A DNA stretch of 32,000 nucleotides from positions 420,001 through 452,000 of the forward strand of contig OW818675.1 of assembly GCA_942493095.1 (NCBI GenBank), given 5' to 3'. The DNA is from Candidatus Electronema halotolerans. Lineage in GTDB: Bacteria; Desulfobacterota; Desulfobulbia; Desulfobulbales; Desulfobulbaceae. Numbering within the stretch: the stretch's first letter is position 1; every line of letters begins with the position of its first letter. This document shows, in pieces, positions 2,980 through 26,067 of this stretch. The notes under the pieces are model-generated. The model was not told the origin of the DNA and did not search any database. It was given only the letters and a program-made list of their open reading frames with translations. Both the position numbers and the translations under genes were made by a program.

Positions 2980-3010
2980 GATGTATTTGTTATTGATTTT
3001 AATTCGTTCC

Positions 3011-3038
3011 GTAGGGACGAAAAATTTTTCGTCCCTAC
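3011..3038. repeat. REP-like 28-nt perfect palindrome GTAGGGACGAAAAATTTTTCGTCCCTAC
   Basis: Perfect inverted repeat, intergenic between the pgm start and the LRR gene stop. Member of a 7-copy family in this window. Confidence 0.85.
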
Positions 3039-3077
3039 ATTGTGCCATTGCCAAGGAACAAGGCAAAAAAGACAAAA

Positions 3078-4442
3078 TCACTGTCCGCCGCGCACCAACA
3101 GAACCGCGACGTCGTAGTCGCGGTTGACGACGTCGGAATAGCCGCTGCCGAAATAGACGCACCACGCATAGTCCGAGCTGACCGCATAGGGCGAACCGGA
3201 CCAGTACCACAATGAAGTATTCGGAAAAGCCTGCTGATTGATCGTTGGCTCTTCCGAATCATCGTTGCACCAGCCGTCATCTTTGTCTTTCACCCCTTTA
3301 CTGCAATAGACCAAGGTTTTCAGCTCATCAATGGTCGGCAGCCGCCAATCTGTATAACCAGCATATTCAACATGTTTAAAACGGCTTACGGCATCATCCC
3401 ATTTGCACTCTTCCGCCTTTCCCACTTCACAATTCACCCCTTCCAATCCTTCTGAGCAGCGTTTCCACATCAGGCCAGTCTTCGTATCAATTATAGTTCC
3501 ATCGCAATGATCAATATATTGACCAATCTTTATTCCTTTTGAGCAAGCTATTTTCCACAATCGTTCTTTTTCTCGTGCAGCGATGCCATCCAATTTTTTT
3601 CGCAATCCTTCTGGCAACTTTGACAAGTTATCATAATCAGAGCCGCTGTCATATTGCAGTTTCTTGATGCTTTTCAAAGAAAACATATCACCGTAATCAT
3701 CCGCCAAACGCACCGAGCCATTGCCTTGCAAATCCCAAATTTTCAGCGCATTCATGTCTATGTATGGAATTTCCGTCAGCTCATTGTTGCTCAAATCAAG
3801 TAATTGCAAATTCCGCACCGGCAGCCCTGTTCTGGGAAATGTGCTGATGCCGTTGGCGGATAAATTCAACTCCTCCAAACCGGCCAGCTTGTTCAGCTCC
3901 AATGCGCTGACCTCGTTGTTAATCCGGTTCTTGCTCAAATCAAGAATCTTCAATGACCATAACGGAGCTAAGGAACCGAAATTCTTGGCCGCGCCCTGCG
4001 TCCCGCTCAAATAGAGTTCGCCTAAATCGCTCAATTTCTGCCAAACCGGGGCAAGATTTTGCTCCGCCGTGTCGCCTTGAAAAAGCGGGTTGTCGGAAAG
4101 ATTGAGCACATCCAGCTTGGGCATGGCCTGCAAGGTTTCCAGCAAATCGCTGTCCGCATCCAAATGATTTTTCGACAAATCCAAGCGGCGCAGGTTGGTG
4201 AAGCGTTTCAGCCACGGCGGGATTCTGTACAACGAGGCATCGGAAAAATCAAGCAGCTCCACCCGGAGCAATTCGCGGGGCGCGGTCTCGGCAGGCAGCA
4301 CCTGCGCAGTTCTTTGGCCGGAAAACTGCACCTTGACACCTGCATCGTGCATGATGCGCACGTCATCAATTGTGAATAATTCCTGCCCGACAGACAAGGA
4401 CGGCAGCAGGCATAAGCACAAGGAGAATATGATTTTTTTCAT
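3078..4442 (-). CDS. Secreted leucine-rich-repeat protein with C-terminal DUF1566 (Lcl C-terminal-like) domain
   Basis: Signal peptide [20 protein letters not shown]. Repeated LxxLxLSxNxL units. C-terminus [33 protein letters not shown] matches the DUF1566 pattern. Confidence 0.75.
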
Positions 4443-4489: not shown

Positions 4490-4517
4490 GTAGGGGCGGT
4501 TCATGAACCGCCCCTAC
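4490..4517. repeat. REP-like 28-nt perfect palindrome GTAGGGGCGGTTCATGAACCGCCCCTAC
   Basis: Perfect palindrome, intergenic. Preceded by a second 16-nt palindrome, gcacggcgcgccgtgc, at 4469-4484. Confidence 0.85.
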
Positions 4518-4554
4518 AGAAATTTCTTGATGACCTCGAAAAAACAGAAATACG

Positions 4555-8529: not shown

Positions 8530-8778
8530 GGTTGAGGAAGAGATGATTGACGTTCCAGCGCGGAACGCTGCGGGGCAGTATATTTTTTTGCCAAGCAAAG
8601 GTCAAGTGAAAGTCTTTGAATATTGAACCGTTGCCCAAAACCTCTCCAGCAGCGGCCTTGCCATCCATCACGTTTCTTGACAGAGCTTGAACGCCAGAGT
8701 AAACGAATTGAAAAATCAATTCGTTTCTTCAAAATAAGGTGAAAATGGGCCGGACAAGGGGAGGTTTCCCAAAATGGC

Positions 8779-8808
8779 TTGACAACTGCCTGATTTTTCT
8801 GGTACGAA
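8779..8808 (+). promoter_or_regulatory. Leader-A sigma70-like promoter (TTGACA-18 nt-TACGAA), copy 1
   Basis: About 95 nt (8722-8818) are near-identical to the leader of array 2 (10944-11038). The -10 element ends 10 nt before the solo repeat. Confidence 0.5.
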
Positions 8809-8818
8809 AAGAGGAAGA

Positions 8819-8853
8819 GTCACAATGACACTCCGGGGCACCTTGGGTTAGAC
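8819..8853 (+). CRISPR. Solo degenerate CRISPR repeat (35 nt)
   Basis: GTCACAATGACACTCCGGGGCACCTTGGGTTAGAC versus the consensus: 2 substitutions and a 1-nt deletion. No second repeat follows. Confidence 0.8.
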
Positions 8854-8868
8854 CGCAGGCCGGAATCC

Positions 8869-8896
8869 GTAGGGGGAATTCATGAATTCCCCCTGC
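8869..8896. repeat. REP-like palindrome GTAGGGGGAATTCATGAATTCCCCCTGC
   Basis: Near-perfect 28-nt palindrome 15 nt after the solo repeat. The flank ggccggaatcc resembles the flank of the copy at 20003. Confidence 0.8.
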
Positions 8897-8931
8897 AATG
8901 TTTGGATATTTCATAAAAATGGCTTTCCGCC

Positions 8932-9768
8932 ATGAACATCCTCCCCTGCTTCCAGCCGCTGCTTGACCTCTCGTGGCAAACCTTGCGTATTGAGCTGCGC
9001 AACACCCGCAACATCTTTGCCCGCCAGCACCCGTTAGCCGTGTTCGCTGCGGTGTGCAAGGAGGCGGCCAGCAAGGCAGGTATTCCGCACCACGAGTATT
9101 TTTATCATCCCTTGTCCGGCCTGCTGGAAAGCCGCATCCGCAAAGATGCTGTCTATCCGCTGGAACTGGTTTTCTCCAGCAACGACAGCACAGTCCGCGA
9201 CCGCTTCCTCAGCGGCCTGACCGAGCACCTGCGTCATCCCCGCAGCAACTTTGCCCTGCATCAGGCAGAGCCATCCATCCGCCGCTGCCTTGCTGATCTG
9301 CTGGCGGAAAATCCCCTGCGCTGCCCGGACGAAGTCTGCTTGGATTTCATCACCCCGTTTCCGTTCACGCCAAAAGCACCGGGGCAGCTCTGCCTGATCG
9401 ACCGCGACCTCTTTTTCCGCAAGCTGGCAGCCCGCATTGAGCGGACGTTCGGCCTGCGGCTGCCGGGCATCGAAAGCACGTGGGCGGAAGTGCGCTTGCT
9501 CTGCTGCTATTGGAAATACTATGAACGTCAGCGGGATTCGGCCAGCAACAGGGGCAGGCTGTATCTGAACGGCACGGTCGGGCCGCTCTATCTGCGCGGC
9601 GAGATTGCGCCGGTCTATCCGCTCCTCCTGCTCTGCTCCGAGATCAGTAACGGAAGGCACAGTGCCTTTGGCTTAGGACATTACCTGCTGCGGCAGGAAC
9701 CCAGCCTGAAAAACCTCCGGCAAAATGGCCGTGAAAGAGGGGCTGGAAGGGGAGGTGCTACAAAATAG
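8932..9768 (+). CDS. cas6: CRISPR-associated endoribonuclease Cas6 (RAMP)
   Basis: 278 aa adjacent to the arrays. C-terminal glycine-rich loop SNGRHSAFGLGHYLL is typical of Cas6. Called from context plus this motif only. Confidence 0.7.
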   Translation: MNILPCFQPLLDLSWQTLRIELRNTRNIFARQHPLAVFAAVCKEAASKAGIPHHEYFYHPLSGLLESRIRKDAVYPLELVFSSNDSTVRDRFLSGLTEHLRHPRSNFALHQAEPSIRRCLADLLAENPLRCPDEVCLDFITPFPFTPKAPGQLCLIDRDLFFRKLAARIERTFGLRLPGIESTWAEVRLLCCYWKYYERQRDSASNRGRLYLNGTVGPLYLRGEIAPVYPLLLLCSEISNGRHSAFGLGHYLLRQEPSLKNLRQNGRERGAGRGGATK

Positions 9769-9770
9769 TA

Positions 9771-9800
9771 TTGACAGGAAGCTGAATTTACGGGTATAAA
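9771..9800 (+). promoter_or_regulatory. Leader-B sigma70-like promoter (TTGACA-18 nt-TATAAA)
   Basis: Near-consensus hexamers. The -10 element ends 10 nt upstream of repeat 1. The same roughly 51-nt leader recurs inverted at 20837-20887. Confidence 0.6.
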
Positions 9801-9810
9801 AAGAGGCAGA

Positions 9811-10119
9811 GTCACAATGACACTCCGGGGCGCCCTGGGTTATGACATACTATATGTGGCAAAGCCACTTTATAAGTCACAATGACACTCCGGGGTGCCC
9901 TGGGTTATGACTGTTATCTTCGGCAATTGATCCTGCAACTGAAAGTCACAATGACACTCCGGGGCGCCCTGGGTTATGACCAGATGCCCCATATAGCAGC
10001 CTTGTTTTTGTGTCACAATGACACTCCGGGGTGCCCTGGGTTATGACAATTGCATCACCAGAAAAACTACGTAGATTTGTAAAGTCACAATGACACTCCG
10101 GGGCGCCCTGGGTTATGAC
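9811..10119 (+). CRISPR. CRISPR array 1: 5 repeats, 4 spacers (29, 33, 31, 36 nt)
   Basis: Repeats at 9811, 9876, 9945, 10012 and 10084, all 36 nt: GTCACAATGACACTCCGGGGYGCCCTGGGTTATGAC. The Y polymorphism lies in the predicted hairpin loop. Confidence 0.95.
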
Positions 10120-10151
10120 TGTCTGATTTAACCCTTCACCATTTCAATCCT

Positions 10152-10167
10152 GTCACGCCACAATGAC
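10152..10167 (+). repeat. Truncated sixth repeat remnant GTCACGCCACAATGAC
   Basis: Lies 32 nt (one spacer length) after repeat 5 and matches the repeat 5' end GTCACAATGAC with a short insertion. Contains the ATG of the downstream antitoxin ORF. Confidence 0.45.
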
Positions 10168-10381
10168 TGTTGCGCAGTTATACAAGCGATATATCCAGCC
10201 GATATCAGCCGCTGATCAACTTGAGCTGATCGCCTTGATCAGCAGACAATTGATCAACCGGCCTGAACGGCAGCAGCGGAGCCTGCTGGAGTTGGAAGGA
10301 CTTGGGGCCGAAATATGGGAAGGTGTTGACCCGCAGCAATATGTTGATGCGCTGCGGAATGAATGGGAAAACCGCCTGTGA
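10163..10381 (+). CDS. VapB-type antitoxin (small, acidic C-terminus)
   Basis: 72 aa. LELEGLGAEIWEGVDPQQYVDALRNEWE is a pattern common in antitoxins paired with PIN toxins. Overlaps the downstream PIN gene. Confidence 0.6.
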   Translation: MTVAQLYKRYIQPISAADQLELIALISRQLINRPERQQRSLLELEGLGAEIWEGVDPQQYVDALRNEWENRL

Positions 10382-10824
10382 CAAGTCCTGAGTCTGCTTT
10401 CACAAAGATAACAGTGCTGGGAATTGACACGGCTCCGTTTATTTATTTTGTCGAACGGCATCCAGTTTATCTGCCGGTCATCCGGGATATTTTCAGGCGG
10501 ATTGATCAAGGATTCATGCGGGGCTGCGCTTCGGTGATCACGCTGACTGAAGTGCTTGTTCAGCCCAAGCGTTGCGGAAAAATCGCCTTGGAACGAGAAT
10601 ACCGCGATCTCCTGCTGTGCAGCAGAAATTTTGAACTTATCCCGATAGATGCGGCAATTGCCGAGCAGGCGGCGGAACTGCGGAGCCGCCATAACCTGCG
10701 AACGCCTGACGCGCTTCAGATTGCGGCCAGCCTTTCCGGTGGTTGCGAAGCATTTCTGACCAATGACAAGCAGCTCAAGCGCGTTGAGGACTTGGCAGTG
10801 CTGGTGCTGGATGATTTTGTATAA
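10363..10824 (+). CDS. PIN-domain VapC toxin
   Basis: GIDTAPFIYFVE (N-terminal Asp), TLTEVLV, and RTPDALQIAASL..AFLTNDKQL acidic-residue pattern of PIN domains. The start is ATG 10363 or GTG 10378 (GTGA overlap with the antitoxin stop). Confidence 0.7.
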   Translation: MGKPPVTSPESAFTKITVLGIDTAPFIYFVERHPVYLPVIRDIFRRIDQGFMRGCASVITLTEVLVQPKRCGKIALEREYRDLLLCSRNFELIPIDAAIAEQAAELRSRHNLRTPDALQIAASLSGGCEAFLTNDKQLKRVEDLAVLVLDDFV

Positions 10825-10998
10825 CAGACATGGACGAATGATGTCGGCTGCTTAAAAAATATATTATTTCGGACAGGTGCGAGTTATTGAATTATCATGC
10901 TGAATCTGCGTCGTTATTCGACAAAACCAACACAATGTAGTACCTTCGGCAAAATGAGGTGAAAATGGGTCAAACAAGGGGAGGTTTCCAAAAAACGC

Positions 10999-11028
10999 TT
11001 GACAACTATCTGGATTTACTGGTACGAA
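10999..11028 (+). promoter_or_regulatory. Leader-A sigma70-like promoter (TTGACA-18 nt-TACGAA), copy 2
   Basis: Same geometry as 8779-8808. The -10 element ends 10 nt before repeat 1 of array 2. Confidence 0.5.
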
Positions 11029-11038
11029 AAAAGGAAGA

Positions 11039-11212
11039 GTCACAATGACACTCCGGGGTGCCCTGGGTTATGACAATATATGATCACCTATCACATTACC
11101 GTGAGAGTCACAATGACACTCCGGGGTGCCCTGGGTTATGACTTGAGGTTTGCTGACAGTGAAACATTCATGTCTTGTCACAATGACACTCCGGGGTGCC
11201 CTGGGTTATGAC
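11039..11212 (+). CRISPR. CRISPR array 2: 3 repeats, 2 spacers (32, 34 nt)
   Basis: Repeats at 11039, 11107 and 11177, all the T variant of the consensus. Confidence 0.95.
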
Positions 11213-11214
11213 CG

Positions 11215-11242
11215 GTAGGGGCAAAAAATTTTTTGCCCCTAC
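11215..11242. repeat. REP-like perfect palindrome GTAGGGGCAAAAAATTTTTTGCCCCTAC
   Basis: Starts 2 nt after the last repeat of array 2. Confidence 0.85.
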
Positions 11243-11264
11243 GATTTTTCCGCGAAAAAAATTC

Positions 11265-11293
11265 TTGCAAAATCTGCATCATGTCGTTATATA
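11265..11293 (+). promoter_or_regulatory. Candidate promoter of the effector operon (TTGCAA-17 nt-TATATA)
   Basis: The -10 element ends 6 nt before the cmr1-like ATG (11300), so the mRNA would be leaderless or nearly so. No Shine-Dalgarno sequence is visible. Confidence 0.4.
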
Positions 11294-11299
11294 TCGGAC

Positions 11300-12328
11300 A
11301 TGACTCAGCTCCCCTACAGCATCTCTTCACGCACTCCCATCGTCACTGGTGACAACGACCACCGAAACACTGAACTGCAAGCCGCCGGACTGCTCGGCAG
11401 CCTGCGCTATCAATACTGGCTGCTCAAGGCCATGCAGGCGTGGGAGAAAAATCCGCAGCATCCTGTTTATCCGCCGTATTCCGCTGATCTTTCACCCGCA
11501 GGCAGCAAAAATTTCACAGAGGAACTGCGTAAGGCCGGGCCAGTCGTGCAGCTTTTTGGTGCCACGAACTGGAAAAAGATGTTCCGGCTGGAGATTGCCG
11601 AAGCGGTGCAAAGAGAGCAGCAGTCCTGCTCGGCCCGCGCAAATGACCGCATTGCTCCGTGGCAGTGGACGTTCAAACTCATTTTCCGCCACGACAGAAA
11701 CAGCCCGATTTTTAACAAGCTGGCGGACAAGGAAGGCTTCAGCTTGGCAGATGAGCTGCACAGCCTGATGGCTTTTGTGCATCAGTATGGCTGGCTGGGC
11801 GCGGCCCCGCAGAACGGGCTGGGCTGGGTAAAAGTGCAGAGCGAGGAACTTGGAACGGTCATCCTGCCGCAAGAAAATCCGGTCTTTGCGGCAAAGGATA
11901 TTCTGTTGAATAGAAAAGAATCAAAAAGACTGCAAGATACGCTGCGCGACTATTACCGCGACAAGTACAGCAATTTGGCCGCCCCGCATTGGAAACGGGG
12001 ACGATATCTGCACAGCTTAGAGCATCTGGACAAACAGTCTCCGCCAATCGGCTACGAAATCCGCCGCTGGCTGCGGGATCAGATGTTTCCGCCTGACCGA
12101 TATAAAAACAAGCAGGAGGAATATTTCGGCAACCAGAAACATGCCGGTTTTGTTCATGTCACGCATCCCGTTGTTCAGTCGGACGGCGGCTGGTTGCTCA
12201 GATTACGCTTTGCGGCCCGCCCGGATACGACTGGCGACACAACGCGGCTGTATCCCGATCATCTCGATATTGCGCCGCAGTTCTGGCTTGATTACTGCGA
12301 AAAACTTCTGAAAGCGAAAGATGACTAA
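11300..12328 (+). CDS. cmr1: Type III RAMP protein, Cmr1-like (Cas7 group)
   Basis: TPIVTGDND..AGLLGSLRYQYW, LFGATNWKKMFRLEI, and the G-rich loop GWLGAAPQNGLGWV. A second RAMP half has YFGNQKHAGFVHV. First gene in the III-C gene order. Confidence 0.6.
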   Translation: MTQLPYSISSRTPIVTGDNDHRNTELQAAGLLGSLRYQYWLLKAMQAWEKNPQHPVYPPYSADLSPAGSKNFTEELRKAGPVVQLFGATNWKKMFRLEIAEAVQREQQSCSARANDRIAPWQWTFKLIFRHDRNSPIFNKLADKEGFSLADELHSLMAFVHQYGWLGAAPQNGLGWVKVQSEELGTVILPQENPVFAAKDILLNRKESKRLQDTLRDYYRDKYSNLAAPHWKRGRYLHSLEHLDKQSPPIGYEIRRWLRDQMFPPDRYKNKQEEYFGNQKHAGFVHVTHPVVQSDGGWLLRLRFAARPDTTGDTTRLYPDHLDIAPQFWLDYCEKLLKAKDD

Positions 12329-13459: not shown

Positions 13460-14641
13460 GGCGGTCTCCCTCTTGAGAGTTGTTGAATAATTGTTTATCC
13501 TTCTGTGTGTGTCAACTATTTTAAAGAAGGAGGAAAAGATGGCTAAACTTGCAAAAGTCGGCAGTTTTTGTCCGAACCCCGCCTGTTCTGATTATGAGCA
13601 GCTTGACGGTCGAATTATCAGATATGGCCGCACTCGTGCAGGCGTTCAGCGTTTTAAATGCCTGAGTTGCGGAAGAACGTTCACTGCGACGCGAGGGACG
13701 ATATTTTATCGCCGCCGGACGGAGGATGCTGAAATTGTTGAGTGTCTTGCCCTGCTTGCGGAAGGATCACGGATCAGCAGCGTGAGCCGGGTGAAAGGGC
13801 ACAAGGAAGACACAGTCGCCGCTTGGCTGACGGAAGCAGCCGAGCATGTTGAAGCTGTTGAAAATGTTCTTCTTTCCGAATTCCGCATCAGCCGGGGCCA
13901 GCTTGACGGCTTATGGTCTTATGTGAAGAATAAGGGCGAAAAAAAAGGACATGCGGAAACTGAGGCGAGCGGCCAGTTTTTCCGTTCGACGATGATGGAC
14001 ATGGACAGCCGCCTGCGTGCCGGGCGGGGATTCGGCAAATCGGAGACGGAAGCTTCCGCCGCCGTCTTCCGGCAGCTCAAGGAACGCGGGCATTCCGACG
14101 GCCCGCCGCCGACAGTTTCAGACGGCTGGGGCGGCATCCGGGAGGCGATGCTGGAAATTTTTGGAAAAGTTCCTGAATATTCCGGAAAAGGCAGACCTCC
14201 CTCGAAAAAGCGGCCTCAACCCGGATGGAAATATTTGCAAATCATCAAGCAGCGGGATGAGAAGGGGAATTTTCTCGGCACACGGCGCAAGGCGGTGCAT
14301 GGGAGCATGAGAGAACTTGATAAAATCTTTGGAAAAAGCACGGCCTATATTGAACGCAGCCATCTGACCATGCGGACTTTCAGCAGCCGCCTGACGCGGA
14401 AAGGCATCGCCTTCTCAAAGAGCATTGACATGCATAAAGCCGCCGCCGCACTGGAGGATATGTATTACAACTTCATCAAACCGCTGAAAACTTTGAGGCT
14501 GAATGCTGACGAAAACTCCGGGCTGAAATGGCTGCCGCGCACACCGGCAATGGCTGCGGGCTTGACGGACCATATTTGGACGCTGAAAGAGGTCTTCAGC
14601 ATGGTCGTGATTGAAAAACAACACTCAACAGGGTGACGACC
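13460..14641 (+). mobile_element. IS1-family insertion sequence (1182 bp)
   Basis: Imperfect terminal inverted repeats, 20/26 matches (GGCGGTCTCCCTCTTGAGAGTTGTTG versus the reverse complement GGTCGTCACCCTGTTGAGTGTTGTTT). Flanked by a perfect 8-bp direct repeat ATAATTTT at 13452-13459 and 14642-14649. Confidence 0.85.
13539..14636 (+). CDS. IS1-family DDE transposase (single ORF with N-terminal zinc finger)
   Basis: GGAGG RBS 7 nt upstream. CPNPAC..CLSCG zinc finger. LDGLWSYV, SDGWGGI and ERSHLTMRTFSSRLTRKGIAFSK match the IS1 DDE and C-terminal pattern. The stop lies inside the right IR. Confidence 0.75.
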   Translation: MAKLAKVGSFCPNPACSDYEQLDGRIIRYGRTRAGVQRFKCLSCGRTFTATRGTIFYRRRTEDAEIVECLALLAEGSRISSVSRVKGHKEDTVAAWLTEAAEHVEAVENVLLSEFRISRGQLDGLWSYVKNKGEKKGHAETEASGQFFRSTMMDMDSRLRAGRGFGKSETEASAAVFRQLKERGHSDGPPPTVSDGWGGIREAMLEIFGKVPEYSGKGRPPSKKRPQPGWKYLQIIKQRDEKGNFLGTRRKAVHGSMRELDKIFGKSTAYIERSHLTMRTFSSRLTRKGIAFSKSIDMHKAAAALEDMYYNFIKPLKTLRLNADENSGLKWLPRTPAMAAGLTDHIWTLKEVFSMVVIEKQHSTG

Positions 14642-14649
14642 ATAATTTT

Positions 14650-17295
14650 CAGCTCGACAAAAAAGGCCAACAGAAACGTAATTTTTTTGATCAGGACTAC
14701 ACGTCGATTTTTACAGAAGGGCTGTTCAGCAAGCTGACTGGTCAGCCTGTCCCAGCAGGTGTGGACTGGCTCTGTGAATTTCATCCCGGCACCTCTTTGT
14801 ATGATTTTTACGCTTGGCATCACCGGCCTACTTTTCACTTAAAAACGAAGAGTCATGTAGCAACATCCCTGCTTTTTTTCTCTGCCGGAACCGGAGGCAT
14901 TGATGGCAACGACACTGGTTATGAAACCGAAATGGAGGCTGGCCGTGAAAAATATTCCGGGCATCACACTCCTGACACTGCGCAGGACAATATTGTTCTG
15001 ATCAGTACGCCGTTTGGTTTCGAGCGGCCTGTTGATCTTGGCTGTGCTGAGACAGCTTGTCATTTGACAGAAGAAATACAAAATGTTGTTGCAGCTCTGC
15101 GGCAAAACAGCCAGCCCATGCAGGCGGCGGCAGAGCTTGAAAGAAAACTTGAGCAGCCTTTTCGCAACACGGTCATCCGCACCAAAAGACCGATCAATGA
15201 CATAACCCTTGCTGATCATTCCATTTCAACTGCTGCCTTGACAGTTGCCCAAGCAGCAAGGGCAGTGCTTGAAAACATCGCGGCCCCGGATGACACCGCT
15301 TACTGTCTGCCAGTCAGAAGACCGTGCAAAGATAGACCCAGCCAGCAAACTTGCTTTGCCGCCTTCAGTTGCGCAGTCAATGCGGACAAGCTCGACCAGA
15401 TGGCTTTGGAACTCAAAGACATCACCGCCATTCGGGACGAGGTGAACAAGCTGCTCAATTATTTTATCCTCTTGTTTTCTGAGGAATATCCGGTTGGCGG
15501 GAAGGTGTATCAAGATCAGCACGGCGCGCATGTCGTGGTGCCGGTGCTGGGTAATCCAGCCAAACGCTGGATTAAAGGCGGCGCAGACAAGCTGATCAGG
15601 CTTGAGGAGCAGACGCAGCAGCCTGAATGGGCGGACGCGCCGCTGGATGCCCTGACCGATGAGCAGTTTGTCGATTGGCTCTTTGCCACGGCAGAAAGAG
15701 AGTTACAGAAATTTCCGGTTTACTTTGGTGCGGAACTGCTGATCGGTCTGCGTTACAATCCGATTATGCAGCAATTGAACAGGCTGGCCCATGCGATTGA
15801 CTGGAGCCGGGAAATTTCTTGGTTCAGCAGGGCTGCCGGTCGTGCTCTGCGCAAAGGAGAAGGCGGGGGCTGCATTCGATTTTTCAACTATTTGGAAAGA
15901 GAAGTCACGCTCGACAAAAAAGATCAAGCAGAACCTGTTCCAGATTTGTGCGGAGTCTGCGGTCTGCGCATGGGCACTGACCGCAAGCACCGGAAATGCG
16001 ACATCTGCTTCAAACGGACTGATGATCATCGGGTGCTGCTGGAAGAAACCGGCGATATTGAAAAACTGGAACAGGCTTCCGGCGACAACCGGATGGTGCT
16101 GTTAAGCGTTTCTTTCAACCTTGCCGACTGGTTGGCAGAGAAATCCAATTCCGGGATTTTCTGTCACACGGCAAACAAGGCGAATAAGCTGAAGGAGCAG
16201 AAAACTGTCGAGCATCAACGCTTCAACAGCTTTGGCCGTTTCCGGCGTATTTGGCGGAGCACCGAGATTTTTCTGAATGAATTATGCGGCCAGATTCAGG
16301 AAATCAGCGGGCCGGGCGACGAAGACCGTTTCCTGATGCGCACTATCCTGCTTGCCCCGCAGGATTTGCAGATCATCCTGCCTGCGGCCAAAGCCCGCCA
16401 AGCTCTGGATGCGGTGTACGAAAAATTCAGCACGGAATTCGGCAGAGTCAGCGACCGGATGCCCTTTCATGTCTCCCTGTGCATCTTCCCGTTTCGAGTG
16501 CCGATCTACTTGGTGCTGGAAGCGGCCAGACGGCTGCGGCAGAGCTGCCTGAAAATTAAGCCAAAGCAGGTCTGGTTGCACAGAGCTGATCCAGAAGATG
16601 AGCATAGCAATCTGCTGCGCACGGACAGCCGCGCAGACTGCGACGACCGGGAGCGCAGCTTCACCTATTGCCTGCCCATGATCTGGACGCAGAACTATCA
16701 GCCGCCCAACATGCTGAACGGCAAGGATCAGTTTCACGCCAATATCCAAGTGAAGCAGGAAGAAGACGGTAACACGTCCTGGCAGTGGAAATTTGTCGGC
16801 GAGATAGGGCAGGGCGAAAAAAAAGGTGCAAAAGAGACCGTCCTGATGACCGACAACCGCTTGGCCATTGTCGAAATCAGCTCTGGTTTCAGCTTGGATG
16901 AACTGGCCCGGCCTTCGGAAGAGCTGGAGCCGAGCCGCTGCCACGACATCCCGCTCGGCTATTGGCCCTGCATCAAGGAGCTGATCAAGCTGGAATCGCG
17001 CCTGTCTGAAAAGCAGCAGCGCGGGCTGCGTTCCGTCTTGGCCATGCGGGAAAAACTCTGGCAGGAAAGCGACCTGCCCGGCGCAACAGCGGAGGAAAAG
17101 CAGAACTTTCTCCGGCAGAGCATCCGCCTGCTCTGGCAGGAACCTTCCCGCTTCGGGCCGACAAAATGGGGGAATTTGCATGATCACCAAAGAAATCTGC
17201 TGGAGGAAAGCTGTCTGAACGGGGCTGTCTTTCTCGCCTCAGCAGTGAAAAAACATTTGCAGCACAACGACGACAAGGAGCAGGATCATGGCTGA
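14650..17295 (+). pseudogene. cas10: cas10 (cmr2-like) 3' segment: D1/zinc finger/Palm2/D4
   Basis: RPINDITLADHSISTAAL (Cmr2-type), CGVCG-x13-CDIC treble clef, Palm-like strands RMVLLSVSFNLADWL and TILLAPQDLQIILP. In frame with 13073-13459 once the IS and one TSD copy are removed. Confidence 0.75.
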
Positions 17296-18295
17296 AGACC
17301 GGCGGATGCTCAAACTGTTCACCCTTGATCCGCTCCACATCGGCGTGGGCCAAGACATCATGGGCGAGGTTGACCTGCCTGTTGACCGGGAGAGTGAAAC
17401 CGGGGTGCCGCGCATTCCCGGCACGGCCCTGAAAGGCGGCTTCCGCGCTCATGCGGCATGGAAGCTGAAAATGGACGGCAAAAAGGACAAACCCTGTCCC
17501 GGTGATCAGCCGGAAGACGGCAAAACTGCGGCAGAGCGAACCCGTTCTGATTACTGCCCAATTGAATCTTGCCCGATCTGCCAGACCTTCGGTTTTCCAT
17601 CGCTGAACATTCAGGAAAAGCAGATTGCCGGACACGAGGGCCGGGTCTATTTCCGTGATGCCCGGCTGGCCTTTTTTCCAGCTCTGACCGACAAGGGCAC
17701 GCTCTGGTTTTCCACGCCGGGCCGGGCCGCAGCGTGGCTGGAGCTGAAAGGCTATGAACATCCTGAATTGCTTATGGCGGACGGCGACTTGGCCCTGTCA
17801 GTCAATCAGAAAGAGCCAATTCAGGATTTGCGGGTCGGCTGGATTGCTGTTTCCGGGATTGAGCAAAACAGCACGGAAGCGCAGGTGCAGCAGGTTGTTG
17901 AGGCTCTGCGGAACTCCACGCTGCAATTCCCGACTAAGAAATACTGGCAGCATATTGTCAGCAAAACCGTGCTGCTGGATGAAAAGCATTTTTACCGCTT
18001 GGTGGAAACCTGCTTGGAGCGGCGCACCTGCAACCGGGTGGATCAGGACACCGGCACTGTGGCGCAGGGCGCACTGTTCAGCTACGAAGCTCTGCCCCGC
18101 GCCAGTCTGCTGTGCAGCCGGATTTTTGCCGAGACATCGTTGCCCGGCACGATTGAGGGCGGCTATGATTCGCCGCTGGCGGTCTGCAAGCTGGCCAAGG
18201 AAGGCTTTGCCCGCATGGGCATTGGCGGGATGCAGACCAGAGGCTTAGGTTCGCTGCTGATTGAGCTGTCAAGCAGGGAGGTCGGCAATGGCTGA
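17288..18295 (+). CDS. cmr4: Cmr4-like Cas7 backbone RAMP
   Basis: LHIGVGQDIMGEVDLPVDRESETGVPRIPGTALKGGFR, CPICQTFG, RVYFRDA, TGTVAQGALFSYEALP, GIGGMQTRGLG. Confidence 0.8.
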   Translation: MAEDRRMLKLFTLDPLHIGVGQDIMGEVDLPVDRESETGVPRIPGTALKGGFRAHAAWKLKMDGKKDKPCPGDQPEDGKTAAERTRSDYCPIESCPICQTFGFPSLNIQEKQIAGHEGRVYFRDARLAFFPALTDKGTLWFSTPGRAAAWLELKGYEHPELLMADGDLALSVNQKEPIQDLRVGWIAVSGIEQNSTEAQVQQVVEALRNSTLQFPTKKYWQHIVSKTVLLDEKHFYRLVETCLERRTCNRVDQDTGTVAQGALFSYEALPRASLLCSRIFAETSLPGTIEGGYDSPLAVCKLAKEGFARMGIGGMQTRGLGSLLIELSSREVGNG

Positions 18296-18848
18296 ATTTG
18301 CGTATCAGGAACCGGCCCGGATGAAGTTGGGGCGGGAAATATATGACCGCTATTGCAGAGAAAACAAGCAGGGCAATGCCGTCTCTCTGCTCAGTGATGC
18401 CATGACCGTGCTGCGTCAGCTTGGCCCGGCAGGGCTGGATGTCTGGATTGACCTTGATGCAGCCAAACGCGGCTTTCTCCGTCATGCGTGGCAGGAGAAC
18501 GCGCCTGATGAAATGGCCGCCTCGCTCAAAGCGCGGCAAGAGGATGCGGACACGGCTTGGGCGGAGATTGAAGACCTGATGCAGGTGCTGCGCTGCGCCA
18601 AGTATTTACTCAGTGATGCCATGACTGTGCTGCGTCAGCTTGGCCCGGCAGGACTGGATGTCTGGATTGACCTGAAAGGAAAAGACGGTGAACGACAGTT
18701 CATCCGCAACGGGTTGGATGCGAAACTGTCCGACTCGCTCAAGTCACGGCAGCAGGACATGGACACAGCTTGGGCGAAGATTGAAAACCTGATGCAGGTG
18801 CTGCGCTGCGCCAAATATTACGCCAAGACCCAGGAAAAAGATGAGTGA
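18288..18848 (+). CDS. cmr5: Cmr5-like small subunit (Cas11) with internal tandem duplication
   Basis: Position between cmr4 and cmr3 and all-helical composition. The segment LLSDAMTVLRQLGPAGLDVWIDL...AW..IE.LMQVLRCAKY occurs twice (18387-18605 and 18606-18818). Start ATG at 18288 (ATGGCTGA overlap). Confidence 0.6.
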   Translation: MAEFAYQEPARMKLGREIYDRYCRENKQGNAVSLLSDAMTVLRQLGPAGLDVWIDLDAAKRGFLRHAWQENAPDEMAASLKARQEDADTAWAEIEDLMQVLRCAKYLLSDAMTVLRQLGPAGLDVWIDLKGKDGERQFIRNGLDAKLSDSLKSRQQDMDTAWAKIENLMQVLRCAKYYAKTQEKDE

Positions 18849-19880: not shown

Positions 19881-19987
19881 GTCACAATGACACTCCGGGG
19901 TGCCCTGGGTTGCGACAATTATATTTCCATTATCATCATATTCATATTGCCGTCACAATGACACTCCGGGGCGCCCTGGGTTATGAC
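19881..19987 (+). CRISPR. CRISPR array 3: 2 repeats, 1 spacer (35 nt)
   Basis: Repeats at 19881 (3' end GTTGCGAC variant) and 19952 (consensus). Confidence 0.9.
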
Positions 19988-20002
19988 GGCAGCCGGAAAT
20001 CC

Positions 20003-20030
20003 GTAGGGGCGATTCATGAATCGCCCCTAC
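20003..20030. repeat. REP-like perfect palindrome GTAGGGGCGATTCATGAATCGCCCCTAC
   Basis: 15 nt after the last repeat of array 3. The flanks are homologous to 8854-8925. Confidence 0.85.
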
Positions 20031-20115
20031 AATTTTTTGATATTTCGGTAAAAAAATAATCCTCTCTGGGGCCGCCCGGTATTTTCACGTCATTCCAGTG
20101 CGCGGCACGGGCAGG

Positions 20116-20176
20116 CACAGGGGCCTGCCCCTACAAATCCTGTGTTTTCTGTCCAATGACACTCCGGGATGCCCCG
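20116..20176 (+). repeat. Collapsed REP remnant (20116-20135) plus 3'-truncated degenerate CRISPR repeat (20151-20176)
   Basis: acaggggcctgcccctac is a shortened REP. gtccaatgacactccgggatgcccc matches the first roughly 25 nt of the repeat with 3 differences. Confidence 0.55.
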
Positions 20177-20190
20177 CTCTCCTTCCCGCC

Positions 20191-20290
20191 ACATCCTTCC
20201 CTGTTTCCAGCCTCTGCTGGACCTCTCGTAGCAGACTCTGCACCTTGAGCTGCGCAAACATCCGCAACACCTTTTCCCGTCAGCATCGTC
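20191..20290 (+). pseudogene. cas6: 5' fragment of a second cas6 copy
   Basis: acatccttccctgtttccagcctctgctggacctctcgtagcag aligns to cas6 8938-8985. The ATG is lost and TGG has become TAG at 20229-20231. Similarity ends near 20290. Confidence 0.65.
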
Positions 20291-20524
20291 CCCGACAGGC
20301 GCAACAGATGGCTGACAATCGCGGCCTTGAAAAAGAAAAACCGAAAATTTCTGAAGAGACATGAAATCTTGTCAATGATCTCACAGGCAAGGACTGGAGT
20401 CTTGAACAAGTAAGCGGCGGGCTGGCGGATGAAAAAAATTGCAGATATGTCATGAGCGCATTGCATCAGCAACATTGCCCGCGACAAGAAATAGGGAGGA
20501 GAACTACATTTACGCCATCATGCG

Positions 20525-20836
20525 GTCATAATAACCCAGGGCGCCCCGGAGTGTCATTGTGACCTTCTAATAATCCAGCTGAAGATTTGGTAAAAAGTCA
20601 TAACCCAGGGCGCCCCGGAGTGTCATTGTGACTATCATGACACGCACAGGAATGTTGTTCGCAGTATGTCATAACCCAGGGCACCCCGGAGTGTCATTGT
20701 GACAGAGATGTCTATCCAGAGCTTCGATTGTTTGTCATAACCCAGGGCGCCCCGGAGTGTCATTGTGACCTTGTAAAAGCCCGGAAGACAAAAAAGTTTT
20801 GTCATAACCCAGGGCGCCCCGGAGTGTCATTGTGAC
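20525..20836 (-). CRISPR. CRISPR array 4 (inverted): 5 repeats, 4 spacers (33, 35, 30, 31 nt)
   Basis: Reverse-complement repeats at 20525 (distal, with a 3-nt ATA insertion), 20597, 20668, 20734 and 20801. The leader-proximal end is on the right. Confidence 0.95.
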
Positions 20837-25774: not shown

Positions 25775-26018
25775 GTGCGTGATGGTGAACTGTAAGTGAT
25801 CAATAAAACTCTTAAATGAATCGATGCGCAGTTCTCATCAAACGCTCATCTTGGCCTGACAATTCCCTGACAAAAACTTGGCAGAATAGGCAGGCGAGTT
25901 CTGTCGGCGGCGGCGGACATAATGCAGGCTTCCGTCTTCGTCAGCTTGAATAAGACCTGTTTCTGTGATAGAGTGGTTTCTTTGTCTGCCCATCTTCAGA
26001 CTTGCATAAGGGCGGTTC

Positions 26019-26046
26019 GTAGGGGCGAAAAAATTTCCCCTCCTAC
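26019..26046. repeat. REP-like imperfect palindrome GTAGGGGCGAAAAAATTTCCCCTCCTAC
   Basis: Degenerate member of the same family, upstream of pstB. Confidence 0.6.
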
Positions 26047-26067
26047 GGTGAGCCGTTTCATTTCCGG

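Follow-up and report, generated by a model that had tools for sequence, protein, structure and literature searches.

How is a toxin-antitoxin (TA) gene pair expressed when it lies between two CRISPR arrays and has no recognisable promoter of its own? The question is raised by a stretch of 32,000 nucleotides (nt) from the cable bacterium Candidatus Electronema halotolerans (contig OW818675.1, positions 420,001 to 452,000), here named the window, in which a vapBC-like pair at 10163-10824 follows the last repeat of CRISPR array 1 (9811-10119) within a type III CRISPR-Cas locus. TA genes have long been seen in CRISPR-Cas loci, and the link between the two is understood mostly from the RNA-based CreTA system of type I. 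An earlier note on this DNA had described the region correctly: repeat 5 ends at 10119 and is followed by 32 nt (10120-10151) and by GTCACGCCACAATGAC (10152-10167), in which the ATG at 10163 opens an open reading frame (ORF) of 72 amino acids (aa); an overlapping PIN gene comes next, and a further leader and array lie beyond it. With moderate confidence, vapBC is regarded here as long-standing cargo of the cable-bacterial type III locus, which would lack a promoter of its own, be read from the leader of array 1 and be processed by Cas6.

A vapBC-like module under purifying selection

The first gene of the pair (10163-10381, plus strand), recognised from the list of ORFs and by comparison with homologues, encodes a 72-aa VapB-like antitoxin candidate. 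Its ATG is the earliest possible start, with an in-frame TGA at 10124-10126, and the same methionine opens the vapB homologues. The second gene (10363-10824, plus strand) encodes a candidate PIN-domain (VapC-like) toxin, predicted to be an RNase, of 153 aa, overlapping vapB by 19 nt; if the start is the in-frame GTG at 10378, the protein has 148 aa and the overlap is 4 nt (GTGA). The PIN protein matched PF01850 over residues 21-142 (E = 4.3e-17, 63.3 bits against a cut-off of 23.6) and, distantly, the VapC structure 7by2. Its acidic residues D22, E63, D116 and D135 are kept in the window protein and in five orthologues. The earlier note is supported in describing the pair as a PIN toxin whose small partner is encoded upstream, and in placing it in a CRISPR-Cas locus, here apparently of type III.

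The ratio of nonsynonymous to synonymous substitution rates (dN/dS) was 0.09-0.21 in nine of ten pairwise comparisons among six lineages, with one dS not computable; vapB showed this range, and the PIN gene gave 0.13-0.21 in four comparisons and 0.00 against L014, whose protein is identical. When one genome per species was scanned, homologues of the 72-aa protein were found at 80 loci in many phyla, with a PIN homologue directly downstream at 61 of them. The region 10163-10824 is a true two-gene module under purifying selection, predicted from these patterns to be a working toxin-antitoxin.

The partner of the toxin appears to be a small helical protein of an undescribed family. Sequence searches gave no Pfam or NCBIfam family match and no Protein Data Bank (PDB) relative for the 72-aa protein, and no N-terminal DNA-binding domain (AbrB, ribbon-helix-helix, Phd/YefM or helix-turn-helix) was found in it with Pfam, NCBIfam or PDB, so that it is called VapB-like by position and partner and not by domain. 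An AlphaFold model with four helices and no strands weakly suggests an all-helical protein; its predicted template modelling score (0.39) was too low for a fold search. The conserved C-terminal motif, SLLELEGLGAEIWEGVD, recurs (SLLELEGLGAE...) in another protein joined to HTH_17 (E = 8e-14), and is also joined to a HicB-like domain (E = 1.7e-4, under the Pfam cut-off), where the next gene is a weak PIN match (E = 2.9e-4, also under the cut-off). Such fusions would be as expected for a toxin-binding tail.

Conservation of the module in related lineages

The comparison set comprised the lineage of the window and six related lineages (labels L002-L017 and L101-L103). In all seven, vapB comes directly after a repeat, at a distance of 28 to ~330 nt, and the elements run cas6, array, vapBC, leader/repeat, cmr1-like gene in Electrothrix aarhusensis L002, L006, L010-L013 and L102 as well. 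In cable bacteria vapBC was always found within this type III locus, flanked by repeats wherever both flanks were sequenced; in Electrothrix another repeat lies 15 nt after the PIN stop codon. Since vapBC occupies this conserved place in both genera, Electronema and Electrothrix, the module is not a recent insertion.

Several arrangements were found between the last repeat and vapB. In the window and its close relatives L014, L016 and L017, here named the window clade, the last full repeat is followed by a conserved stretch of 32, 33 or 47-48 nt, with a 15-nt tandem duplication in two members, and then by GTCACGCCACA and the ATG. A leader, one degenerate repeat and 131 nt precede vapB in L007-L009, and a leader, one repeat and 57 nt in L102/L103. 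No promoter-like site above the filter was found in this gap in four of the seven lineages, among them the window clade, L007 and L102/L103 (43-131 nt). L010-L013 have a leader and exactly one repeat, then 1 nt and a repeat-like GTCACAATCAGCAATCCGAAAATTATGATGAC, whose final ATGAC is the vapB start (p 0.004-0.013); the gap in L010 is 28 nt and contains two weak promoter-like sites. In contrast, Electrothrix L002, L004-L006 and L101 have 180-330 nt in this position, with TTGCAG-17-TATAAT, a palindrome with 11-nt arms and an AGGAAA Shine-Dalgarno (SD)-like stretch before the ATG, and in three Electrothrix-type lineages vapB is under its own TATAAT promoter-like site. The palindrome-bearing promoter region is also kept in L003 (Electrothrix), where the 298 nt of contig 5' of vapB contain no repeats.

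Repeats also precede other TA genes. In L010, the repeats at 83-118, 661-696, 2348-2383, 3353-3388 and 4236-4271 precede RelB/ParE, MNT/HEPN, vapBC, UPF0175/DUF3368 and the Cmr1-like gene, respectively, and three of the five (those before RelB/ParE, vapBC and UPF0175/DUF3368) have the full leader TTGACA-18-TATAAA. In L007 (3108-5000), a leader plus one repeat lies before UPF0175/DUF3368 and again before vapBC. These layouts indicate that the locus is a mosaic of leader-repeat-cargo units. The TA pairs of L010 and L007 resemble cargo carried between repeats.

Metagenome scans returned no loci with the Cmr1-like protein as query and two loci only with an alignment as query. In L018 (3680-11605), a type I-C operon has another vapB/PIN pair, with a homologue 68% identical and its own SD sequence, between cas3 and cas5d, and a hicAB module between cas7 and cas4. 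In Electrothrix L006 (4668-4853; also in L002, L004 and L005), three palindromic elements are flanked by a 17-nt duplicate of the repeat 3' end, ACGTCCTGGGTTATGAC, a cluster that resembles an insertion into a terminal repeat with target duplication.

Transcription signals and a proposed mechanism

The sole good sigma-70-like site 5' of vapB in the window is the promoter of leader B (9717-9810, plus strand), a unit of the D3 direct-repeat family that overlaps the 3' end of cas6 and is also present in L010, L002 and L016. It consists of TTGACA (9771-9776), an 18-nt gap and TATAAA (9795-9800), scores 11/12 and lies ~10 nt before repeat 1. Weaker sites are GTGGCA-16-CACAAT in spacer 1 (8/12) and, at the junction, TTCACC-18-CACAAT (8/12), whose -10 overlaps the ATG and which was absent from a second, tool-based promoter scan. 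The terminator scan detected no terminator-like site between the leader B promoter and vapB; the first one 3' of leader B is a palindromic hairpin with a T run at 11215-11242 (plus strand; palindrome family D6). No SD sequence was found before vapB in the window; most homologues elsewhere carry a GGAGG-type site. No operator-like palindrome was found upstream of vapB in the window either. The cmr operon carries its own promoter-like element, TTGCAA-17-TATATA (11265-11293, plus strand; kept in L099), which indicates that promoters are recognisable in this locus where present.

As purifying selection acts on both genes, vapBC must be expressed, and read-through from the leader promoter would be the simplest source of this expression. 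The earlier note had proposed just this, with no separate promoter for the pair. Leader B being the only strong site and the lack of a terminator-like site agree with the proposal; transcription itself is inferred from such signals, and co-transcription is plausible, the comparison of lineages supporting it beyond what the window alone allowed.

The mechanism proposed is as follows. In the window genome and its close relatives the module would have lost, or never had, its own promoter and SD sequence, and vapBC would be transcribed from the leader promoter at 9771-9800 as a 3' extension of the precursor of the CRISPR RNAs (pre-crRNA). The repeat, GTCACAATGACACTCCGGGGYGCCCTGGGTTATGAC, is 36 nt long and its RNA was predicted to fold into a hairpin, CCGGG-NNNN-CCTGG, followed by GUUAUGAC; variation between lineages is confined to the loop (GCGC or GUGC in the window, ACGU in Electrothrix, GUAC in L007). 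A Cas6 cut in repeat 5 would place the mRNA 5' end at 10112, leaving an 8-nt tag, GUUAUGAC, and a 43-nt untranslated region (UTR) before vapB, and a cut in the first repeat of array 2 could set the 3' end. With a shared transcript, TA expression would track crRNA transcription and need Cas6. The likely role, as usually proposed for such cargo, would be stabilisation of the CRISPR locus or a back-up dormancy switch.

Several observations weigh against this mechanism. The transcription signals come from consensus scans, which miss non-sigma-70 and weak promoters, and every repeat contains ATGACA-18-TATGAC (e.g. 10090-10119; 9/12, with no final T in the -10), which could be a chance match or a weak internal promoter able to fire alone. 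The position of the cut is assumed by analogy with other Cas6 systems, in which Cas6 cleaves 8 nt from the repeat 3' end. The varying length of the conserved stretch after the last repeat in the window clade indicates that it is not under a crRNA-like length constraint. Electrothrix keeps the module with its own promoter, so that coupling is not needed for retention. The family at large has no CRISPR link: a repeat cluster of at least three copies lay within 10 kb in two of the 80 representative-genome loci, and just one of these two was a long array (49 repeats).

The junction between repeat 5 and vapB

The 43-nt junction (10120-10162, plus strand), the predicted 5' UTR of vapB, is G-poor, contains GTCAC (10152-10156) and is conserved in alignment with L014, L016 and L017. 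The earlier note had read the sequence that begins 32 nt after repeat 5 as the start of a truncated repeat. The best reading of such a remnant is GCCACAATGAC (10157-10167, plus strand), which overlaps the start codon and matches repeat positions 1-11 at 10 of 11 bases. The putative remnant begins 32 nt (to GTCAC) or 37 nt (to GCCAC) after repeat 5, where array 1 has spacers of 29, 33, 31 and 36 nt; in L014 and L017 this distance is 47-48 nt. A gapped alignment of the junction with the repeat over 40 nt gave p ~0.008, with the window itself as background.

Like degenerate terminal repeats, this sequence stands about one spacer length after the last full repeat, its 5' end is better kept than its 3' end, and it is conserved together with the last spacer among strains. 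It differs from them in that 11 nt are recognisable, the CCGGG/CCTGG hairpin stem is gone, and five of the 11 nt are codons also found in repeat-free orthologues. GCCACAATGAC is thus a weakly supported repeat remnant, at best a short scar, which may have been left when a repeat and the vapB start recombined long ago through the shared ATGAC.

Another origin of the junction was tried and rejected: homology with the Electrothrix post-array sequence or vapB 5' UTR, with which it shares CCCTTCA, found no support, as the local alignment was no better than with shuffles (p = 0.63). Both versions of an origin by deletion between direct repeats were dropped after this result. RNA folding of the junction gave an 8-bp hairpin over the AUG, and the tag is able to pair with the next GUCA, every z-score being insignificant. 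In L010 the predicted Cas6 tag contains an AUG that shares the reading frame of vapB and that of the MNT gene, 11 codons upstream in each case; reading from this AUG in the window would end at a stop after three codons, and relB is in a different frame from it, so no claim is drawn from it. The 3' tag region of repeat 5 contains GGGTTA, a sequence complementary to the TAACCC that lies 13 nt further on in the junction (10110-10134), and L016 (58-83) has a shifted GGTTAT/ATAACC pair, which could hide the tag of the last unit, six bases being weak evidence.

Alternative explanations

Whether the bases around the start codon derive from a repeat at all is an even question. ATGAC could simply encode Met-Thr, with CAATGAC as the ancestral start context and the GTCAC and CA matches due to chance in a locus rich in GTCA and TGAC. 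ATGAC does open 10 of 53 unrelated vapB homologues, and orthologues in Electrothrix and L102 carry CAATGAC or ACAATGAC at a distance of 57-330 nt from a repeat (the nearest repeat being 180-330 nt away for CAATGAC in Electrothrix); the other 25 nt match the repeat at just three positions, which is chance level, and the junction has no significant similarity to array-derived sequence of Electrothrix. On the other hand, with ATGAC kept fixed the upstream bases still match the repeat at p ~0.005, the different repeat-like stretch of L010 (GTCACAAT...TTATGATGAC) also ends at the vapB ATG with p 0.004-0.013, and the distance from repeat 5 is near the spacer range. The earlier note held that the same start context in vapB genes without any CRISPR would make the resemblance coincidental; half of this is borne out, as the Electrothrix vapB genes have CAATGAC far from a repeat, whereas the full CACAATGAC is confined to the window clade among the cable-bacterial orthologues compared, and ACAATGAC was found in none of the 53 homologues outside CRISPR loci.

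Read-through from leader B has itself to be weighed against a promoter of vapBC that the scans failed to recognise, be it the hexamers in repeat 5, a non-sigma-70 promoter or an element in spacer 4, which would make the pair an ordinary TA module beside an array. This is somewhat doubtful. The repeat-internal hexamers do reach 9/12, the scans are crude, the second one having overlooked even the leader promoters, and the Electrothrix orthologues show that the module can have a promoter-like site of its own; but the TATGAC lacks the key final T, spacers differ between strains where the junction is conserved, no operator-like palindrome was found, and the promoter-poor layout behind leader-repeat units recurs in four lineages and with other TA families. 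A recent split of a single ancestral array by vapBC plus a leader, as the earlier note had suggested, is improbable. Arrays 1 and 2 have the same repeat, a leader copy follows the module, and in L099 cas1, cas2, a leader, nine repeats and cmr1 follow each other without interruption; yet the conserved order in Electronema and Electrothrix contradicts the suggestion, as does the distinct leader of array 1 overlapping cas6. A locus lacking the insertion, with which the earlier note had sought comparison, thus exists in L099, although cas6 is missing there together with vapBC. Copies of leader A bracket cas6, array 1 and vapBC jointly, so that any inserted block, which the L099 layout makes possible as an old event, would include cas6. 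Leader types have moreover been exchanged among relatives, leader B being found after vapBC in L016. It is more improbable still that a crRNA-like regulatory RNA (in the style of CreA or a mini-array), made up of repeat 5, a conserved 32-nt pseudo-spacer and the degenerate repeat, steers the type III complex to a self target controlling the toxin. In favour of this, strains share the last spacer unit but differ in other spacers, and mini-arrays beside TA cargo are known in type I-D loci (PMC10120712). Against this, pseudo-spacer matches on both strands of the 32-kb window did not exceed shuffled controls, its length varies (32, 33 or 47-48 nt) through the 15-nt tandem duplication, and in L010 it is absent, the repeat directly preceding the repeat-like stretch. 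Type III complexes act on RNA, and such a regulatory use has not been described in the literature.

Organisation of the type III locus

The locus that carries vapBC appears to be of type III (Csx11-type), judging from profile matches of which those to Csx11 and Cmr1 were under curated cut-offs. A cas6-like gene of 278 aa (8932-9768, plus strand) matched PF10040, CRISPR_Cas6 (E = 7e-6, 27.1 bits against a cut-off of 25). The effector operon begins with a cmr1-like RAMP gene, found by profile searches (11300-12328, plus strand; Cmr1 NCBIfam score of 27 bits, cut-off 28.65), and includes a Csx11-like large subunit (14611-17295; NCBIfam 120 bits, cut-off 249) and a Cmr4 gene (17288-18295; NCBIfam 105 bits, over the cut-off of 87). 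An Rfam scan of the entire window gave no matches.

The repeat scan delimited array 1 (five repeats of 36 nt, plus strand) and array 2 (11039-11212, three repeats, plus strand), with further copies as a lone repeat at 8819-8854, two at 19881-19987 and five on the minus strand at 20528-20836. A direct-repeat search found three copies of a ~126-nt leader, at 8725-8850, 9717-9842 (with leader B) and 10945-11070. The first is a leader A-type copy (TTGACA at 8779-8784) that forms, with the lone and slightly degenerate repeat (five mismatches), a unit 5' of cas6 (8725-8854, plus strand; direct-repeat families D1 and D3). The leader A copy in front of array 2 (10945-11038, plus strand; D3 family) has TTGACA at 10999-11004, an 18-nt gap and TACGAA at 11023-11028, and is 86% identical to 8725-8850. 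The lone repeat retains its stem through a G-U pair, and a palindromic hairpin also lies directly 5' of cas6 (8725-8931). With a leader copy directly upstream, cas6 itself may likewise be under CRISPR leader control.

Two arrays lie in 19881-20836, one with two repeats and a different leader, the other with five repeats in the opposite orientation. Between them, a partial repeat at 20154-20174 stands before a second copy of the initial 67 nt of cas6 (20191-20257, 84% identical to 8936-9002). These features look like remnants of a duplicated cas6-array unit. A GC-rich palindrome family (GTAGGGGC...GCCCCTAC) is present at 3008-3039, 4490-4518, 8869-8897, 11212-11243, 20000-20031 and 26016-26047, after arrays as well as between unrelated genes, and resembles genome-wide repetitive extragenic palindromic (REP)-type elements or terminators.

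In the cmr operon, the -10-like TATATA stops 6 nt 5' of the ATG of the cmr1-like gene (11288-11302), so the mRNA may be leaderless; this gene likewise begins with ATGAC. An ORF at 13491-14636, with matches to an IS1-type transposase zinc finger and DDE domain, lies within the effector operon, where it overlaps the Csx11-like ORF at its start. The Csx11 alignment of L099 and L100 begins only at about residue 60, and L099 has ~400 nt where the window has ~1.5 kb; the IS1-type ORF looks like an insertion into the effector operon. The ORF at 18261-18848 of the same operon contains a ~215-nt tandem duplication (18390-18819) with copies 84-97% identical.

Other putative functions were found in relatives of this system. 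L102 (1477-2889) encodes a Cas6-reverse transcriptase fusion, and a Cas1 ORF in L099 (7-1260), which begins 7 nt from the contig end, opens with a YGDD-containing stretch that resembles the end of a reverse transcriptase, without Pfam support for this part. They may hint at spacer acquisition from RNA in the cable-bacterial system.

Discussion

The module is like known type II VapBC systems in its PIN protein with four acidic residues, in the small overlapping gene upstream and in the conservation of the pair across phyla. It differs from them in its antitoxin, which is predicted to be all-helical and has no Pfam or NCBIfam match to the usual DNA-binding domains, and in that neither a promoter nor an operator of its own is recognisable in this lineage.

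In the Sulfolobales, type III cas cassettes were previously observed to contain VapBC-type modules. Acidianus hospitalis has four vapBC pairs in a type III-D cassette, and such pairs, interspersed in the cas gene cassettes of this order, were suggested to keep the CRISPR-Cas locus (PMC4390879). Those pairs are interspersed among cas genes and are not described as following repeats, whereas the case in the window is bacterial, bracketed by repeats and, in the lineages compared, usually located behind a leader promoter and a repeat.

Shmakov et al. (2023) found standalone repeats and mini-arrays at conserved positions beside TA cargo in type I-D and other type I loci, with a mini-array spacer partly complementary to the cargo promoter, through which Cascade represses transcription; type III loci had no conserved standalone repeats, and those present were judged degraded (PMC10120712). 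The window shares with these type I mini-arrays a repeat unit off the main array, at a conserved position directly 5' of TA cargo in a CRISPR-cas locus. It differs in being type III, in that no partial target was found in the 32-kb window, and in that the repeat would lie within the predicted mRNA.

In CreTA, a small RNA, CreT, serves as the toxin, and Cascade is guided by CreA, a degenerate mini-CRISPR. Both cases have a TA element that is tied physically, and by hypothesis functionally, to CRISPR repeats and guards the cas locus, but the pair in the window consists of two proteins, which are proposed to be linked through a common transcript and its processing by Cas6 and not through guide-directed repression.

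Csy4/Cas6 sites have been engineered to insulate genes in synthetic operons, with the mRNA 5' end set by cleavage. Such a device is like the window in placing a Cas6-type hairpin before a coding region, and differs in being synthetic; we know of no description of a natural counterpart for toxin-antitoxin genes. In the literature, which was incompletely covered, no description was found of protein TA operons behind a CRISPR leader and repeat and without their own promoter, and nothing relevant was found on Cas6-processed mRNAs of genes downstream of arrays.

A wider reading of the locus is speculative and rather unlikely in its full form. Leader promoter and repeat would act as a portable promoter-and-processing cassette, and TA operons (vapBC, relB/parE, UPF0175/DUF3368 and perhaps MNT/HEPN) as well as cas operons would be carried between repeats like giant spacers, to be transcribed from leaders and released as mRNAs by Cas6. 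If this were true, the balance of toxin and antitoxin would be tied to crRNA biogenesis, and the system would form a type III analogue of CreTA addiction based on proteins, within a CRISPR type whose standalone repeats had been judged non-functional.

The vapBC layout recurs in related lineages, in two of them with other TA families, and runs counter to the published view of type III standalone repeats as decay products. If the transcripts of array and module were independent, vapBC would be merely another TA pair parked in a defence locus. If read-through from array 1 is true, the pair would be expressed in step with the CRISPR leader promoter and have its mRNA shaped by Cas6, which would give cable bacteria a direct link between a toxin-antitoxin system and CRISPR.

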